From the NCBI RefSeq assembly GCF_056712565.1, contig NZ_CM160072.1: a stretch of DNA of 64,000 nt. One strand, written 5' to 3'. The translations under genes were made by a program, and so were the position numbers. Positions within the stretch are counted from its first letter, which is position 1, and each line of letters opens with the position of its first letter. Positions 54,873-61,322 of this stretch are shown piece by piece. The notes below the pieces were generated by a model. That model did not search any database, was not told the origin of the DNA, and was given only the letters and a program-made list of their open reading frames with translations.

Positions 54873-56012
<1,140 letters not shown>

Positions 56013-56016
56013 TCAG

Positions 56017-56292
56017 CTATTTAAGATAGGCACGAACCAGTTCAATAGTGTCGTCAACGGATTGGCTGACTTCGCGGCTGTAGCAGTCATTTCGGTCAAA
56101 CGTTTCCCGGATATGGCTTTCAAGCACTTCTGCCATCAGTCCGTTAGCCGCGCCCCGAACGGCAGCGATCTGTTGGAGTATGGCACGGCATTCGGCATCA
56201 CCCTCCAGCGACCGTTCCAGAGCATCAATCTGCCCCCGAATACGACGAACTCGAGTAAGGACCTTTTTCTTCTCTTCCGGAGTACTGGGCAT
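56017..56292 (-). CDS. frmR: Formaldehyde-responsive repressor FrmR (CsoR/RcnR family)
   Basis: 91 aa from [29 protein letters not shown]. Confidence 0.95.
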
Positions 56293-56316
56293 TTCGCACC
56301 TCATCATCTGCACGCA

Positions 56317-56369
56317 ATATACTATAGGGGGGTATGCTATATGTCAATGCATACCCCCCTATAGTATAT
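56317..56369. promoter_or_regulatory. frmRAB operator: perfect 21-bp inverted repeats carrying G6/C6 tracts
   Basis: atatactataggggggtatgc (56317-56337) and its exact reverse complement (56349-56369), 25 bp upstream of the frmR start. Confidence 0.8.
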
Positions 56370-56480
56370 AACACTGGAGAATAAAATTTATCCGGTGAAT
56401 GTAGTCGGAAAACAAAGAGGAAAGGGGATAGGGGCTAATCGGCAGGGAAGGCCGCCCCGGATAGCGGGCGGCAGAAGGAA

Positions 56481-57254
56481 TCAGAATTTCCAGGTCAGAT
56501 GGGCTGCAAGTTGCAGACCGTTATAATCATCGGTTGGGGTGTCGTACCACACTTTACCTGCCGTCAACCCGAGATTAAGTTGCTCAGTCAGCGGTTGAAT
56601 ACGTTGCAAACTGATGCTCTTCATGCTGCCGTAGCGTGTTTCTGGCGTCCAGTCGTAGGTGTAAGCACCTGTTCCGCGGCTTAGCCATAGTTGCGTGTAA
56701 CCAGTGCCGCGCGGGTCATTCAGACGCACGGAAATCATATTGCTGTAACTACCACCTGCATCGCTGGAGTCATAATGGGTATAGCGATAGCTGGTGATCA
56801 CCGGGCCAGTATAGAGTGATATGCCACCTTGCCAGGCATCGACTTCGACATCATCGTAATATTTAGTGTAGCGATAACCGGTCGTGAAAAGCGTTTTTGG
56901 CAACAGGGCCAGGTTAATATCCTGACGAAAATCCTGGCGGGCAAAGACCGGCGTATTATCCGCAAAGGCAATACCCGTTCGGGTTGTCAGCCAGTTATTC
57001 CATTTGTACCAGACTGCACCCTGGCCGCGAGTGGCATTGAAATGTTCAGTTTCATAATCACGACGCCCCTGGGAAAGATTAAAAAGCAGCGTTGCGTTTT
57101 CAACTTTCGCCACCAGTTCAGCATACGCTAAATTACGGTTGCCATGATCGCCAGAATAATCGGTAAAATCGTAGCCCGCGGTAATGGAAGTTAACCCGGC
57201 ATAAACGGGTAATGCGCTAAAAATTGCCGCCGCTAATAACGTCCGTTTTATCAT
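56481..57254 (-). CDS. yaiO: Outer-membrane beta-barrel protein YaiO
   Basis: 257 aa with signal peptide; ends with aromatic residue (WKF). Confidence 0.9.
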   Translation of the reverse strand: MIKRTLLAAAIFSALPVYAGLTSITAGYDFTDYSGDHGNRNLAYAELVAKVENATLLFNLSQGRRDYETEHFNATRGQGAVWYKWNNWLTTRTGIAFADNTPVFARQDFRQDINLALLPKTLFTTGYRYTKYYDDVEVDAWQGGISLYTGPVITSYRYTHYDSSDAGGSYSNMISVRLNDPRGTGYTQLWLSRGTGAYTYDWTPETRYGSMKSISLQRIQPLTEQLNLGLTAGKVWYDTPTDDYNGLQLAAHLTWKF

Positions 57255-57255
57255 T

Positions 57256-57948
57256 TTAATCTCCTGTACGGATAAGTTCTTGTCGGAGTGAATAAGTTCC
57301 GGTAGGTAAATTACGTTCTACAATCACGCGCGGGCCAAGTTGCGTGTTCGGGGAAATAATTCGCCCAGGCAAAATAATAACTTGTACGCCAAGGCGTGAA
57401 CGCTGCCCGATATAACAACCTAATTTATCGCATCCGGTAGCGATAATTCCATCTGGAGTTCGAACAGACACGGGCTGTTCATCCAGACGATGATTACTGG
57501 TTCGTACTTGTGCGCCCAAATATGCCTGGTTTGCAACTACCGAGTCGGCAATAAAGCATTGCGGACCAATCGTGGCTTCCGCTTCAATAACCGCATTTTT
57601 AATTTCGGTGGCAAAACCAATTCTTACGCCATTGCTGATTATTGTGCCAGGACGAATAAACGCATAATTACCTATTAGGCAGTTTGCGCCAATCACTACC
57701 GGACCCTGAATAACGGCACCGTGGCAAATACGGGTATTCGCGCCGATAACAACCTCACCGGCACTTTCATCAATAATCACCTGGTCTGCAATCTGAATAT
57801 TTTTCTCTTTAACATTAAGCTTCAGATAGTTTTTCAGTTCCTGTGACAGAAGGGTGGGAATAAGCGGTTGACACTTCCACCAGTGCGGAATAGCGGGTGG
57901 GTTTGTCGCGCTGAGGTTCGCGTCCAGTAAAAAAGGCAATAAGTCCAT
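57256..57948 (-). CDS. yaiX: Hexapeptide-repeat acyl/acetyltransferase YaiX, apparently intact; start uncertain
   Basis: Left-handed beta-helix repeats; any ATG start (57948 or 57966) overlaps the yaiP 3' end by more than 130 bp. Confidence 0.65.
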   Translation of the reverse strand: MDLLPFLLDANLSATNPPAIPHWWKCQPLIPTLLSQELKNYLKLNVKEKNIQIADQVIIDESAGEVVIGANTRICHGAVIQGPVVIGANCLIGNYAFIRPGTIISNGVRIGFATEIKNAVIEAEATIGPQCFIADSVVANQAYLGAQVRTSNHRLDEQPVSVRTPDGIIATGCDKLGCYIGQRSRLGVQVIILPGRIISPNTQLGPRVIVERNLPTGTYSLRQELIRTGD

Positions 57949-59071
57949 AAATAATCCAGATGGCATAAGCTAATAATACATACACAACGGAAAGCGGTGC
58001 TAAAGGCACCAACAACCAGCAACGATGAAACCAGGCGCTAAATGCACCAATAACACAAACTACGCCGACCCAGATAAGCGGGAACATTGCCAACACCACA
58101 CCATGTGGCCCGGTGGTGATGAATTCATTAAACCAGGTAGTGAGATAAATACCAACGCCATAAAGCACAACCAACAGCATAGGAAATATACTGAAGATAC
58201 CGAAGCGGCTAAATAAAAGTCTTTTATGCAGGCGCATACAGACCGCGTAGCCCACAATCCAACGCCGCCAGCGGCGCCACTCCTCACGCGGACTGTTACA
58301 TTCCTGTGGGTATACGATGCAGCGATTCGCCTGCCGAATACGGTAGCCGTTTGCCACCAATGTCCAGGTGAGATCAAGGTCTTCGACTTTAGTACGATCC
58401 GAGAAACCGAACTTACGCAATACATCAGTACGGAACATCCCGCAGGCACCGCTGATGATAAACGGTGCGCCGCCCAGAAGCTGCTGTAGCGTGCGCTTCA
58501 TAACAATCATCGGCAACTTTACGGTCGCGCGGATGTGTAGCTGCTGTAGCGTGCGCTTCATAACAATCATCGGCAACTTTACGGTCGCGCGGATGTGTGG
58601 TAACAGACCCGCGCCTTTCAACGCAGTAGAGGGAATGCCGCCTACGGCATCAGCGCCACGCTCAATTTCCGCCAGCATATAGCCCATTCCGTCTTGATCG
58701 GGCGGAACATAGGTGTCGGCATCACTTAAAAAAACCTGATCGCAGGTGGCGTAATTGAGGCCATTCATCAGCGCACCACCTTTACCGGTATTTTTTTGCG
58801 TGACGGCAACAAAGCGGTCGCCCCATTTGCGTTTGACTTCCGCCATGACCGCTTCGGTATTGTCCATGGAGCCGTCGTTAACGCAAATTACCCGGCAAAA
58901 ATAAGGGTTACGCAGCAGATTATCCAGTGACTGCGCCAGACACGGGCCTTCGTTATAAGCAGGTATAATGGCGTCAATACAGCCTTTCTTTTGGCTGGGC
59001 TTACGCCTTAACGTACTCAGAAACCATAGCAATATTGCTACGGCCATACATATAAAGATCCAGGTTTTCAT
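57815..59071 (-). CDS. yaiP: Family-2 glycosyltransferase YaiP, carrying an in-frame 20-aa tandem duplication
   Basis: 418 aa (398 expected without the duplication); glycosyltransferase-like N-terminus, C-terminal membrane segments. Confidence 0.85.
   Translation of the reverse strand: MKTWIFICMAVAILLWFLSTLRRKPSQKKGCIDAIIPAYNEGPCLAQSLDNLLRNPYFCRVICVNDGSMDNTEAVMAEVKRKWGDRFVAVTQKNTGKGGALMNGLNYATCDQVFLSDADTYVPPDQDGMGYMLAEIERGADAVGGIPSTALKGAGLLPHIRATVKLPMIVMKRTLQQLHIRATVKLPMIVMKRTLQQLLGGAPFIISGACGMFRTDVLRKFGFSDRTKVEDLDLTWTLVANGYRIRQANRCIVYPQECNSPREEWRRWRRWIVGYAVCMRLHKRLLFSRFGIFSIFPMLLVVLYGVGIYLTTWFNEFITTGPHGVVLAMFPLIWVGVVCVIGAFSAWFHRCWLLVPLAPLSVVYVLLAYAIWIIYGLIAFFTGREPQRDKPTRYSALVEVSTAYSHPSVTGTEKLSEA
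58481..58600. repeat. Tandem duplication of a 60-bp unit (units differ at 1 position) inside yaiP
   Basis: ctgctgtagcgtgcgcttcataacaatcatcggcaactttacggtcgcgcggatgtgt occurs twice consecutively. Confidence 0.9.
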
Positions 59072-59080
59072 GCAATTTGC

Positions 59081-59767
59081 TCAAAGAATCATTTTATGAA
59101 TAACAAAACCTTCACCCAGATCGCTATTGACCTGTTGCCCGCGAAATTGAGCAACTGCACGCAGACGCTCCGGGCGCATATAATCTCGCTGGCTCTGACT
59201 TTTATGTTTTTTTAACGCAGTCAGTTTAAGAGAAAAATATTCTTCTTTCACGGATTCAAAAACCTGAGGCATAAATGAAAGCCAGGTACTTGGTGTTTCA
59301 TAGCCGAGAATTTGCGGAATAGCGCGACAGGCAACCATTGAGGCTTGATAGACTGCAAGATGATCCTGATGGCGGTCAGCATCATGCATGGTATATACAC
59401 GTATAATTTCAACATCAGAGGGAATTTGATTTTTTATGATGTTTTCCAGGGCAGAAATCATATCATTGAGCTGTAAATGAGCGCGGGTGTCAGCAAAATT
59501 AAGATGAATAGTTTGGTGGCACCCTAATATCTTTAGAGCGTTGCGTGATTCTTCGTGGCGATCGATTATTCCATCTACGCCAGAATTACCGGTAGTCATC
59601 ACTACGGTAGCAATATAAATTCCTTTTTGCGCAAGGCGAGCTAGCGATGCGCCACAGCCTAATTCTATATCGTCAGGATGCGCGCCAATGGCAAGGATAC
59701 CCTTTCTTTTATTTGCCGAAGAAAGGATCGCTGAATCTAAAACCTTATCCACTTTATGACACTCCAT
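59081..59767 (-). CDS. yaiS: PIG-L/LmbE-family deacetylase YaiS
   Basis: AIGAHPDDIELGCG motif near the N-terminus; start may lie further in. Confidence 0.8.
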   Translation of the reverse strand: MECHKVDKVLDSAILSSANKRKGILAIGAHPDDIELGCGASLARLAQKGIYIATVVMTTGNSGVDGIIDRHEESRNALKILGCHQTIHLNFADTRAHLQLNDMISALENIIKNQIPSDVEIIRVYTMHDADRHQDHLAVYQASMVACRAIPQILGYETPSTWLSFMPQVFESVKEEYFSLKLTALKKHKSQSQRDYMRPERLRAVAQFRGQQVNSDLGEGFVIHKMIL

Positions 59768-60359
59768 TTTATTTATTATACTACAAGCACAACGACGCCC
59801 CCAGAGACGTAACCTCTGACGCAGACAGATGCTAATTTTTAAGTGTTAAAAATAGCTGATAGCTGAAAAACAAGGGGCTGTCAGGTACGGGGGTAAGAGT
59901 GTGTAATCTTTTATGTAGTTCATATGTTAAGTGTTTGTGTGTTTGGTTTGTATGGTTATTTTATTTTATATATTGTATTTAAATGTGATTTAGTTTGTCA
60001 ATTAATTGCATATTAAAAATATGTTCTATGCACAAATATTGATTATATACATTATGTGAATACATTATGTGGTTGATTGAGAATGATACATTTATATATG
60101 CAATGTGAATATAATGGTTTCATTATATGTGTTGCTGTTAATAAAATAACAGACATTAGAACCTGCTTGTTTATGCATTAATAAAATGAAGTGCAGTAAT
60201 TTACTGAGTTATCAGAGTGGGCGTAATTGCATATTTAATCTTTCCTTTGCCGCTTTTTTGCTAAGAATAAAATCATCTGTACGATAACGACTAATTCTTT
60301 TAATGAATGTTTTTATTCCTGAATACTGCTCCCATAACAAGACGGGGGAGCAGACAATC

Positions 60360-61322
60360 ATGGTAATTTCATCGCGTAACACATTTCTTGCCGCACTGGC
60401 ATTCATCGCTTTTCAGGCGCAGGCGGTGAACGTCACCGTGGCGTATCAAACCTCCGCCGAACCGGCGAAAGTGGCTCAGGCCGACAACACCTTTGCTAAA
60501 GAAAGCGGAGCAACCGTGGACTGGCGTAAGTTTGACAGTGGAGCCAGCATCGTGCGGGCGCTGGCTTCGGGCGATGTGCAAATCGGCAACCTCGGTTCCA
60601 GCCCGTTAGCGGTTGCAACCAGCCAACAGGTGCCGATTGAAGTCTTCTTGCTGGCGTCAAAACTGGGTAACTCCGAAGCGCTGGTGGTAAAGAAAACTAT
60701 CAGTAAACCGGAAGACTTGATTGGTAAACGCATCGCCGTACCGTTTATCTCCACCACCCACTACAGCCTGCTGGCGGCGCTGAAACACTGGGGTATTAAA
60801 CCTGGGCAAGTTGAGATTGTGAACCTGCAGCCGCCCGCAATTATCGCCGCATGGCAGCGGGGAGATATTGATGGTGCTTATGTCTGGGCACCGGCGGTTA
60901 ACGCCCTGGAAAAAGATGGCAAGGTGCTGACCGATTCTGAACAGGTCGGGCAGTGGGGCGCGCCGACACTGGACGTCTGGGTCGTGCGGAAAGATTTTGC
61001 CGAGAAACATCCAGAGGTCGTGAAAGCGTTCGCTAAAAGCGCCATCGATGCTCAGCAACCGTACATTGCTAACCCAGACGCGTGGCTGAAACAGCCGGAA
61101 AACATCAGCAAACTGGCGCGGTTAAGCGGCGTGCCGGAAGGTGACGTTCCGGGGCTGGTGAAGGGAAATACCTATCTGACGCCGCAGCAACAAACGGCAG
61201 AACTGACCGGACCGGTGAACAAAGCGATCATCGACACCGCGCAGTTTTTGAAAGAGCAGGGCAAAGTCCCGGCTGTAGCGAATGATTACAGCCAGTACGT
61301 TACCTCGCGCTTCGTGCAATAA
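60360..61322 (+). CDS. tauA: Taurine ABC transporter periplasmic binding protein TauA
   Basis: 320 aa from MVISSRN with GGGGAG upstream and a signal peptide; long AT-rich upstream region. Confidence 0.95.
   Translation: MVISSRNTFLAALAFIAFQAQAVNVTVAYQTSAEPAKVAQADNTFAKESGATVDWRKFDSGASIVRALASGDVQIGNLGSSPLAVATSQQVPIEVFLLASKLGNSEALVVKKTISKPEDLIGKRIAVPFISTTHYSLLAALKHWGIKPGQVEIVNLQPPAIIAAWQRGDIDGAYVWAPAVNALEKDGKVLTDSEQVGQWGAPTLDVWVVRKDFAEKHPEVVKAFAKSAIDAQQPYIANPDAWLKQPENISKLARLSGVPEGDVPGLVKGNTYLTPQQQTAELTGPVNKAIIDTAQFLKEQGKVPAVANDYSQYVTSRFVQ

Follow-up and report, generated by a model that had tools for sequence, protein, structure and literature searches.

The yaiX gene, which encodes a stand-alone acyltransferase-like protein of the left-handed β-helix (LbH) type, was analysed in a 64,000-nucleotide stretch of contig NZ_CM160072.1 (NCBI RefSeq assembly GCF_056712565.1); this whole stretch is referred to below as the window. 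On comparative sequence evidence, yaiX very probably starts at the ATG at position 57948 and encodes 230 residues. The resulting 134-nt overlap with the 3′ end of the preceding gene, yaiP, is most likely genuinely dual-coding and has been missed by RefSeq annotation. The overlap appears to have arisen from a 14-nt overlap through relocation of the yaiX start and loss of the yaiP stop, i.e. by overprinting. Both genes belong to the yaiS–yaiP–yaiX–yaiO cassette, which may build a surface glycan. Taken as a whole, this explanation (the 57948 start, the dual-coding overlap, its origin and the function of the cassette) is considered likely. The cassette genes, the annotation of the overlap in strain K-12 and the existence of a little-studied 'cell clumping' operon were already known. 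The new elements are the comparative case for dual coding, the 14-nt origin, the likely mis-start in RefSeq, the breadth and architecture of the cassette, and a strain-specific duplication in yaiP.

Start codon of yaiX and constraint on the overlap

Only two in-frame ATG codons are present in yaiX, at 57966 (M1) and 57948 (M7), and the protein contains no further methionine; residues are numbered here from M1. An ATG start therefore entails an overlap with yaiP, the stop codon of which ends at 57815, of 152 or 134 nt. This agrees with an earlier note on this DNA, made from the sequence alone, in which any ATG start was said to overlap yaiP by more than 130 bp. Same-strand overlaps of this length in bacteria are usually annotation errors or mispredictions. 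Because yaiX is read in the +1 frame of yaiP, position 3 of each yaiP codon is position 2 of a yaiX codon; a translated yaiX frame should therefore freeze the synonymous sites of yaiP.

Synonymous sites were compared in eight divergent yaiP sequences (GC content at third codon positions 0.30–0.64) from what is termed here the enteric-type clade: Escherichia, E. whittamii, Citrobacter (two copies), Superficieibacter, Enterobacter, Salmonella and the type shared by Ignatzschineria and a second E. coli copy. The last 48 yaiP codons have a synonymous codon identity of 0.72, compared with 0.42 for residues 1–375. The other 48-codon blocks of the gene reach at most 0.50 (mean 0.417, standard deviation 0.034), which places the overlap about nine standard deviations above them. 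Identity at third positions is 0.46 and 0.39 at YaiP residues 373–374 and then 1.00 at residues 375–383 (except for 0.75 at residue 381; mean over the nine residues 0.97), and this step coincides with the A-T-G of 57948. The same codons in ten distant relatives, which serve as a control clade, have a third-position identity of 0.36 versus a gene mean of 0.38; in these relatives the invariant third positions sit at their own yaiX start (xAT GTG GTG).

Constraint on the two frames varies along the overlap. In the zone M7–D15 both frames are constrained, with amino-acid identities of 0.91 in the YaiX frame and 0.90 in the YaiP frame. In the zone A16–H28 the values are 0.44 and 0.92, respectively, and the REPxRDKPTRY motif of YaiP dominates. 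In the zone W29–L50, corresponding to the last 22 yaiP codons, identity is 0.51 in the YaiX frame versus 0.32 in the YaiP frame; here the yaiX frame dominates, with the YaiP tail as a passenger.

The M7 ATG and an open yaiX frame from it are kept in all 12 of the enteric-clade sequences, whereas in several distant relatives stop codons close the frame upstream of the start that precedes their Trp-Trp (WW) motif. The curated 5′ fragment of yaiX in K-12 MG1655 likewise starts at the ATG equivalent to 57948 (MDLLPFLLD...), with a 134-nt overlap with yaiP. Among 4861 E. coli records, 4856 show at least 95% identity over the 301-nt junction, whereas over the whole 3.9 kb cassette identity is 90–95% in most records. 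The other ATG, at 57966 (the 236-aa form in KEGG), was rejected: it is absent in Citrobacter, a stop codon intervenes in the second copy of C. braakii, and synonymous sites upstream of 57948 show no constraint.

Public annotations of yaiX differ, with at least five lengths across databases: 236 aa in KEGG, 230 aa in EcoCyc and K-12, and 197, 193 or 174 aa in RefSeq. The Prokaryotic Genome Annotation Pipeline (PGAP) begins the gene at GTG 57780 (174 aa) in strains DSM 30083 and SF-468, an S88 record begins it at CTG 57849 (197 aa), and database clusters of yaiX also hold 193-aa and 230-aa forms. A true start at GTG 57780, or at CTG 57837 or 57849 (193 and 197 aa, respectively), with the upstream open frame as a by-product of YaiP conservation, is improbable. 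Such starts are those used in PGAP annotations and in many database entries (174, 193 or 197 aa), likeness to solved LbH domains begins only near residue 57–63, codon 44 is GTG in Citrobacter and the Shine–Dalgarno sequence of ATG 57948 is weak. However, GTG 57780 is not conserved (GTA in K-12, GTC in Citrobacter), and codon 44 is CTG in Escherichia and no start codon in Superficieibacter. A downstream start would also exclude the WW motif that is conserved at the N-terminus of distant homologues, and it sits poorly with yaiP third positions that are frozen from exactly 57948 and with a yaiX frame that is the better conserved in the yaiP tail. The long overlap had been read in the earlier note as a possible sign of a non-ATG start downstream of 57815; the constraint beginning at ATG 57948, the position of the WW motif inside the overlap and the lack of conservation of GTG 57780 all count against that reading.

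Of similarly low probability is a pair of YaiX isoforms, one of full length from ATG 57948 and a shorter one from an internal start around codon 40–63. In several genera codon 44 is start-like (CTG, GTG or TTG), and AGGA lies just upstream of CTG 57837 (though with a poor spacing of 1 nt), but at no single downstream position is a canonical start or a Shine–Dalgarno sequence conserved. A 'relay' was also considered, in which a mini-ORF (open reading frame) of 12 codons begins with an ATG that overlaps the yaiP stop (TAATG) and ends with a TGA that overlaps GTG 57780 (GTGA); it was dropped because of the K-12 and Citrobacter codons at the latter position.

It is very doubtful that positions 57922–57948 are frozen by a non-coding constraint such as an RNA structure, a small-RNA or protein site, or an internal promoter for yaiX–yaiO. 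Conservation of the 27-nt block extends to all three codon positions, as would fit a constraint of this kind; however, RNAalifold returned essentially no consensus structure around 57948 (−1.35 kcal/mol) and no meaningful covariation, and no promoter-like site was called at 57922–57948. Moreover, the block begins exactly at the ATG of a 230-codon frame that is open in all enteric-clade sequences, and an analogous signal is found at the start codon that the distant relatives use. Fusion of YaiP to YaiX by programmed +1 frameshifting at the T-run GCC TTT TTT ACT (57927–57938) would be allowed by re-pairing of tRNA-Phe from TTT to TTT within the invariant block, but is extremely improbable given that the run is interrupted in Enterobacter sp. 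PGRG2 (TTTTTC), that distant relatives do not have it, that no stimulatory element was identified and that the ancestral genes are clearly separate, yaiX having its own start.

Some points weigh against a start at 57948. No ribosome-profiling or proteomic data on yaiX were found in a literature search, and PGAP prefers starts downstream of it. The Shine–Dalgarno sequence consists of GGA at −9 to −7, 6 nt upstream of the ATG, and its absence is noted in PMC13058169. Conservation of the ATG is not independent evidence, because it is forced by the conserved (Y/H)-G of YaiP; distant relatives share this ATG, yet there it opens only a dead-end ORF of 4–17 codons. YaiX residues 16–28 are poorly conserved in their own frame, so that the constraint there comes from YaiP. 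The eight sequences of the synonymous-site comparison are also not fully independent, as the members of two pairs (loci L010 and L011, and loci L014 and L027) are close to each other.

If yaiX starts at ATG 57948, the current RefSeq form probably drops 56 N-terminal residues, including the family-wide WW motif. Such a mis-start matters to anyone who clones or expresses YaiX, as in a 2026 overexpression study based on forms of 71 and 236 aa.

Origin of the overlap in relatives

A protein search with YaiX returned 530 homologues. The distant ones are about 50% identical to YaiX, have about 205 residues and start with M-W-W-(R/K/N)-(E/D)-L. This N-terminus aligns with H28-W29-W30-K31 of the window ORF, within the E. 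coli overlap. In all ten of the distant Gram-negative loci, the yaiP–yaiX junction is (A/G)TGTGGTGGNNTGA, i.e. (A/G)TG TGG TGG NNT GA, which amounts to a 14-nt overlap; YaiX starts with MWW or VWW, and YaiP ends in ...RDKPTRYxxVVx*.

In the enteric-type clade the codon preceding WW is not a start codon, and the next start upstream is a conserved ATG that opens M(D/E)LLPF(L/S)L(D/E). YaiP is longer in this clade (381, 385, 398, 399 or 403 aa), and the two genes overlap by 83–149 nt, the value being 134 nt in Escherichia and Citrobacter. The tail of E. coli YaiP, residues 374–398, is predicted to be disordered, with a predicted local distance difference test (pLDDT) score below 50 in the AlphaFold2 model, and its amino-acid identity is 0.32.

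These junctions suggest the following course. The ancestral arrangement would have been a coupled 14-nt overlap, still present in alphaproteobacterial and gammaproteobacterial relatives. In the enteric-type clade (Escherichia, Citrobacter, Salmonella, Enterobacter and Superficieibacter) the start before WW would have been lost, and a pre-existing ATG within the conserved (Y/H)-G codons of YaiP captured by removal of the intervening +1-frame stops. Capture of this start would have given YaiX an N-terminal extension of 22 residues. The yaiP stop would have been lost at lineage-specific positions, leaving a disordered, fast-evolving tail of variable length. In the present arrangement, initiation of yaiX at 57948 would be independent and internal to a yaiP message that is translated in another frame. 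As this start lies 134 nt upstream of the yaiP stop, it cannot be served by termination–reinitiation; translational coupling of this kind, raised as a possibility in the earlier note, is plausible for the ancestral 14-nt overlap and not for the overlap in the window.

The compact stop/start overlap of the distant relatives resembles the short coupled overlaps (ATGA, TAATG and similar) of other bacterial genes, whereas the same-strand, out-of-frame overlap of 134 nt greatly exceeds the usual length in bacteria. The proposed relocation of the start with loss of the stop in the enteric lineage corresponds to classic overprinting. With its evolutionary trail from 14 nt to 83–149 nt and an internal control clade, the yaiP–yaiX pair would make a clean example of this process.

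Cassette proteins and putative function

Pfam profiles identify YaiS as PIG-L, YaiP as Glycos_transf_2 and YaiX as Hexapep; together with the ORFs, these matches confirmed the gene identities and positions given in the earlier note, with all genes on the minus strand. NCBIfam gave concordant assignments. YaiS matches PIG-L (PF02585) with 86.7 bits against a cut-off of 28.2 (E 2e-24). The AHPDD and HQDH metal/catalytic motifs are seen in its translation as GAHPDDIELG and RHQDH. Its nearest relatives are diacetylchitobiose deacetylase and BshB1, although the BshB1 equivalog cut-off is not reached (78.9 versus 182.5). The nearest solved relatives act on small N-acetylglucosamine (GlcNAc) glycosides, namely diacetylchitobiose and GlcNAc-malate.

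YaiP is a glycosyltransferase family 2 (GT2) protein (Glycos_transf_2, E 1e-25). Its best NCBIfam match is PgaC_IcaA (TIGR03937; E 1e-25), with 90.4 bits against an equivalog cut-off of 422.3 that is not reached; by its sequence YaiP is PgaC-like but not PgaC. Weak matches to GT21 and NodC were also obtained. YaiP is 52–97% identical across the set compared, with invariant DGS, DAD, VED and RWRRW motifs; D66, D117-A-D119, V209-E-D211 and R247-W-R-R-W251, the GT-A motifs of processive GT2 synthases, are invariant in 21 sequences. The AlphaFold2 model (pLDDT 80) has N-terminal and C-terminal transmembrane helices, and its best Protein Data Bank (PDB) folds are hyaluronan synthases (E 9e-14, template-modelling score 0.65–0.69), followed by PcManGT and BcsA. 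From the model, a translocation channel is predicted under the glycosyltransferase domain.

YaiX matches Hexapep (PF00132) with 62.5 bits against a cut-off of 27 (E 2e-17). Its C-terminal half matches TIGR03992 (E 2e-37; 129 bits against a cut-off of 292), covering only profile positions 233–393 of 393; YaiX lacks the N-terminal nucleotidyltransferase domain of bifunctional GlmU. Residues 63–219 of the 230-aa form match the C-terminal domain of PDB entries 2ggo and 5z09 (E 3e-22). Within the family, an SNHRLD motif and the cysteines C81, C96 and C137 are invariant. No signal peptide is visible in YaiS or YaiX. YaiO is assigned to the outer-membrane β-barrel family of that name (TIGR04390/PF19413; 183.5 bits against a cut-off of 32). 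A search of the PDB with its sequence gave no match, whereas the AlphaFold2 model is a confident 14-stranded barrel (pLDDT 90), which in fold comparison is most like CymA, Omp33, OmpG and FadL.

The four proteins may form a compact synthase-dependent system for a GlcNAc-type surface glycan, the N-acyl group of which would be edited in the cytoplasm; the chances of this assignment being correct are about even. YaiP, a putative processive enzyme resembling hyaluronan synthase and PgaC, would polymerize and translocate the chain. The de-N-acetylase YaiS and the acyltransferase YaiX are placed on the cytoplasmic side because both are without a signal peptide; there they would edit the N-acyl group, with the donor, primer or chain end as possible targets. 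YaiO, a CymA/OmpG-like barrel, would provide passage through the outer membrane, and the product would promote cell–cell clumping. The earlier note's suggestion of a glycan or glycolipid pathway is supported in its general form, with yaiO as a fourth gene that it had missed.

Besides the motifs and folds, this assignment is favoured by the conserved four-gene order in relatives and by clusters in genomes of the candidate phyla radiation, described below, in which PIG-L and YaiX-like proteins are linked to a chitin-synthase-like GT2 and a polysaccharide deacetylase. Experimental hints come from K-12. In MG1655 yaiX is an annotated pseudogene split by IS2A, as the earlier note stated when it described the gene in the window as uninterrupted, and yaiS carries an amber codon at codon 186 (CAG to TAG; locus L003), missed in the note, which deletes 38 conserved C-terminal residues. 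Two genes of the K-12 cassette are therefore damaged. According to the account in EcoGene 3.0 (PMC3531124), repair of yaiX′ in K-12 led to vegetative clumping that required YaiP. In a more recent study (PMC13058169, 2026), overexpression of the 71-aa K-12 YaiX fragment caused drug tolerance; the effect was weaker with the 236-aa form, which was derived from KEGG, and no mechanism was given.

Several observations count against this functional assignment. The source of the clumping result, as cited in EcoGene 3.0, is a meeting abstract; repair of yaiX would also relieve the polarity of IS2 on yaiO, and K-12 is reported to have clumped despite the amber codon in yaiS. In a gap-free HMMER alignment, the proline of the invariant G-P-Q-C in YaiX falls at the catalytic His308 of ST0452, equivalent to His363 of E. 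coli GlmU, and an invariant histidine lies instead in SNHRLD; because of this proline the chemistry of YaiX may differ from that of a standard acetyltransferase. Neither a c-di-GMP receptor (PilZ, PgaD, Alg44 or PelD type) nor a tetratricopeptide repeat (TPR) scaffold was found in the four cassette proteins with Pfam and NCBIfam, YaiO being a bare 14-stranded barrel; a receptor that is remote or unlinked is conceivable. The substrate, the identity of the polymer and the acyl donor are putative.

It is unlikely, although this alternative fares better than any of those raised against the start codon, that the product is a membrane glycolipid or a short lipo-oligosaccharide and not a long exported polymer. 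The glycosyltransferase would then either transfer GlcNAc to a lipid or synthesize a short chitin-like oligomer, with subsequent de-N-acetylation and N-acylation, by the logic of NodC/NodB/NodA, PIG-A/PIG-L or LpxC/LpxD. A cytoplasmic pair of deacetylase and acyltransferase suits the editing of small molecules, and the nearest solved relatives act on such molecules (small GlcNAc glycosides for YaiS, glucosamine 1-phosphate for YaiX). The weak GT21 and NodC matches of YaiP and the resemblance of YaiO to channels for oligosaccharides or hydrophobic substrates (CymA, OmpG, FadL) point in the same direction. Conversely, the whole fold of YaiP best matches channel-forming processive synthases, the clumping reported for K-12 suggests an adhesive surface polymer, and related clusters in genomes of the candidate phyla radiation (CPR; see below) add a polysaccharide deacetylase of carbohydrate esterase family 4 (CE4).

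The proposed GlcNAc-glycan system was compared with known ones. With PgaABCD/IcaADBC, which make poly-N-acetylglucosamine, it shares an inner-membrane GT2 enzyme with D, DxD, (T/V)ED and QxxRW-type motifs, a de-N-acetylation step, an outer-membrane β-barrel and an aggregation phenotype. It differs in that YaiS is a cytoplasmic PIG-L enzyme whereas PgaB is a periplasmic CE4 enzyme, in the lack of a PgaD-like c-di-GMP partner and in the additional LbH acyltransferase; PgaA has 16 strands and TPRs, whereas YaiO has 14 strands without TPRs. Class I hyaluronan synthases (Chlorella virus HAS and Xenopus HAS1) are structurally closest to the YaiP model, with about 420 aligned columns, and like it have an N-terminal transmembrane helix, a GT-A domain and C-terminal helices, which in YaiP are predicted to form a channel; however, identity is 14–16%, YaiP is about 100 residues shorter, and an alternating glucuronic acid/GlcNAc product is unsupported. 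NodC–NodB–NodA follow the same enzyme logic of a GT2 oligomer synthase, a cytoplasmic de-N-acetylase and an N-acyltransferase, but homology is confined to the GT2 enzymes (NodB belongs to CE4, and NodA is no LbH protein), and Nod export proceeds by an ABC transporter and not by a cassette-encoded outer-membrane barrel. The closest solved relative of YaiX is the C-terminal acetyltransferase domain of archaeal-type GlmU (Sulfolobus ST0452; 2ggo/5z09), from which YaiX differs in lacking the nucleotidyltransferase domain, in its own WW-containing N-terminal segment, in the SNHRLD motif and in the proline in place of His308. The monomeric channels CymA and OmpG share the 14 strands of the YaiO model, with identities of 7–11%; both import oligosaccharides, whereas YaiO is a putative exporter.

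More tentatively still, the cassette may represent an uncharacterized compact type of glycan secretion, sporadic in Proteobacteria, in which a hyaluronan-synthase-like GT2 enzyme, an N-acyl swap by PIG-L and an atypical LbH enzyme, and a TPR-less porin lead to aggregation, with the overlap as an enterobacterial lock. This is possible but doubtful. In such a system, NodB/NodA-like chemistry would be carried out by unrelated enzymes.

Locus, distribution and the duplication in yaiP

Coordinates of the features discussed are given in Table 1. The cassette is flanked by frmRAB and tauABCD. The yaiS stop and the yaiP ATG are 9 nt apart; the yaiO ATG lies 1 nt past the yaiX stop, with GGAG 7 nt upstream of it. 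For yaiS, GTG 59752 is the more likely start over ATG 59767: it is preceded by GGAG and is the first ORF codon in K-12 and E. whittamii, in both of which the ATG position lies outside the ORF.

Table 1. Features of the yaiS–yaiP–yaiX–yaiO region, in window coordinates
Feature	Position	Strand	Description
yaiX	57256..57948	−	Stand-alone LbH acyltransferase-like protein; 230 aa from ATG 57948
yaiX open frame	57256..57966	−	236 aa counted from the first ATG
yaiP/yaiX overlap, most likely dual-coding	57815..57948	−	134 nt; last 44 yaiP codons plus stop, first 44–45 yaiX codons
Nearly invariant block	57922..57948	−	ATGGACTTATTGCCTTTTTTACTGGAC; 27 nt; encodes YaiX MDLLPFLLD and YaiP (Y)GLIAFFTG
WW codons of YaiX	57877..57882	−	W29-W30 in 236-aa numbering; position of the putative ancestral N-terminus M-W-W
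Equivalent of the putative ancestral yaiP stop	57872..57874	−	GTG here; the 19 yaiP codons past it are the enteric-specific tail
GTG start of yaiX in current RefSeq/PGAP	57778..57780	−	174 aa; probably not the start
yaiP	57815..59071	−	Membrane GT2 synthase; 418 aa here, 398 aa in canonical alleles
Tandem duplication in yaiP	58479..58598	in frame	Perfect 60-bp duplication; repeats HIRATVKLPMIVMKRTLQQL; Tandem Repeats Finder period 60, 2.0 copies, 100% match
yaiS	59081..59752	−	223 aa from GTG 59752; PIG-L/LmbE-type de-N-acetylase; matches the PGAP 223-aa call
yaiS alternative start	ATG 59767	−	ORF 59081..59767, 228 aa
yaiO	56481..57254	−	257 aa; outer-membrane 14-strand β-barrel; fourth gene of the unit
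Candidate σ70 promoter of the cassette	59972..60001	−	TTGACA-18-TACAAT, 11/12 consensus; consensus match only, no functional evidence

E. coli SF-468, isolated from human blood, matches positions 55959–61118 with 100% identity. The cassette was matched in 4933 of 5426 complete E. coli genomes (about 90%), yet it is broken in K-12; this breakage (IS2 in yaiX, amber codon in yaiS) would account for the lack of study of a possible aggregation or biofilm glycan pathway.

Outside E. coli, a scan of genome contigs with two peptide patterns gave 15 species loci, to which four further enterobacterial loci and metagenome contigs were added. The taxonomic spread of the cassette is therefore a lower bound. 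The order yaiS–yaiP–yaiX–yaiO (PIG-L, GT2, LbH, YaiO) is kept in 13 of the 15 species loci and in the metagenome contigs, including Citrobacter, Superficieibacter, Ignatzschineria, Pseudomonas viridiflava, Acinetobacter, Sphingomonas and other alphaproteobacterial and gammaproteobacterial metagenome-assembled genomes. Two CPR genomes (L019 4350–7434, Kaiserbacteria; L020 4297–7531, Paceibacterota) have the order PIG-L, YaiX-like LbH, chitin-synthase-like GT2 and CE4 polysaccharide deacetylase. The YaiX-like gene of these clusters starts with MWW or VWW and has no overlap with the GT2 gene. Neither cluster has YaiO or an outer-membrane barrel, and CPR genomes lack an outer membrane.

Some E. 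coli genomes (for example GCA_035795235.1; locus L027) have a second, divergent copy of the cassette, with a YaiX about 60% identical, adjoining EAL-domain and fimbrial genes; this copy closely resembles that of an Ignatzschineria metagenome-assembled genome (L014). Two copies are also present in C. braakii ATCC 51113 (L012), and about 30 of the cassette matches are located on plasmids. The second divergent copies in E. coli and C. braakii, together with the plasmid matches, suggest that the cassette is mobile.

The earlier note had described the acetyltransferase as intact, which is correct in that yaiX is uninterrupted. In this strain yaiP is non-canonical owing to the 60-bp duplication, which the note had missed. 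The duplicated segment HIRATVKLPMIVMKRTLQQL is among the most conserved of the family, with R161, A162, K165, I169, R173 and Q176 invariant; in the AlphaFold2 model it forms helices 156–178, directly before the GGAPFIISGACGMFR active-site region. An E-value-filtered search of the 5426 complete E. coli genomes found the duplication in ten, a recurrence that identifies it as a real lineage marker. The carriers are human, dog and chicken isolates of extraintestinal pathogenic (ExPEC) and avian pathogenic (APEC) E. coli, including an APEC O2:K1:H7 strain; close relatives identical over the rest of the 3.9 kb query are without it. PGAP calls the 418-aa yaiP intact despite the duplication. The additional 20 residues in a conserved helix probably impair the synthase, so the cassette is not simply 'intact' in this strain, and the duplication would mark a small ExPEC/APEC sublineage with a probably altered synthase.

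In Enterobacter sp. PGRG2 (L026 3501–4226 and 4141–4917), YaiX has a C-terminal extension of about 25 residues and its gene overlaps yaiO by 86 nt, possibly a second long overlap in the cassette or else a frameshift or annotation issue. In the window, the intergenic region between yaiS and tauA (59768–60302) is very AT-rich, with a GC content of 0.29 at 59800–60199; together with the promoter-like site in Table 1, this composition is compatible with a silenced, horizontally acquired operon. The 3′ end of yaiS also contains, antisense at 59096–59215 on the plus strand, an intact homologue of YkiC, a small K-12 protein of 39 aa, which is fully enclosed in the gene. In newer PGAP runs this homologue is labelled 'hypothetical protein', and the intact 223-aa PIG-L gene is labelled a pseudogene 'missing C-terminus' in S88 and SF-468; the pseudogene call looks like an annotation artefact.

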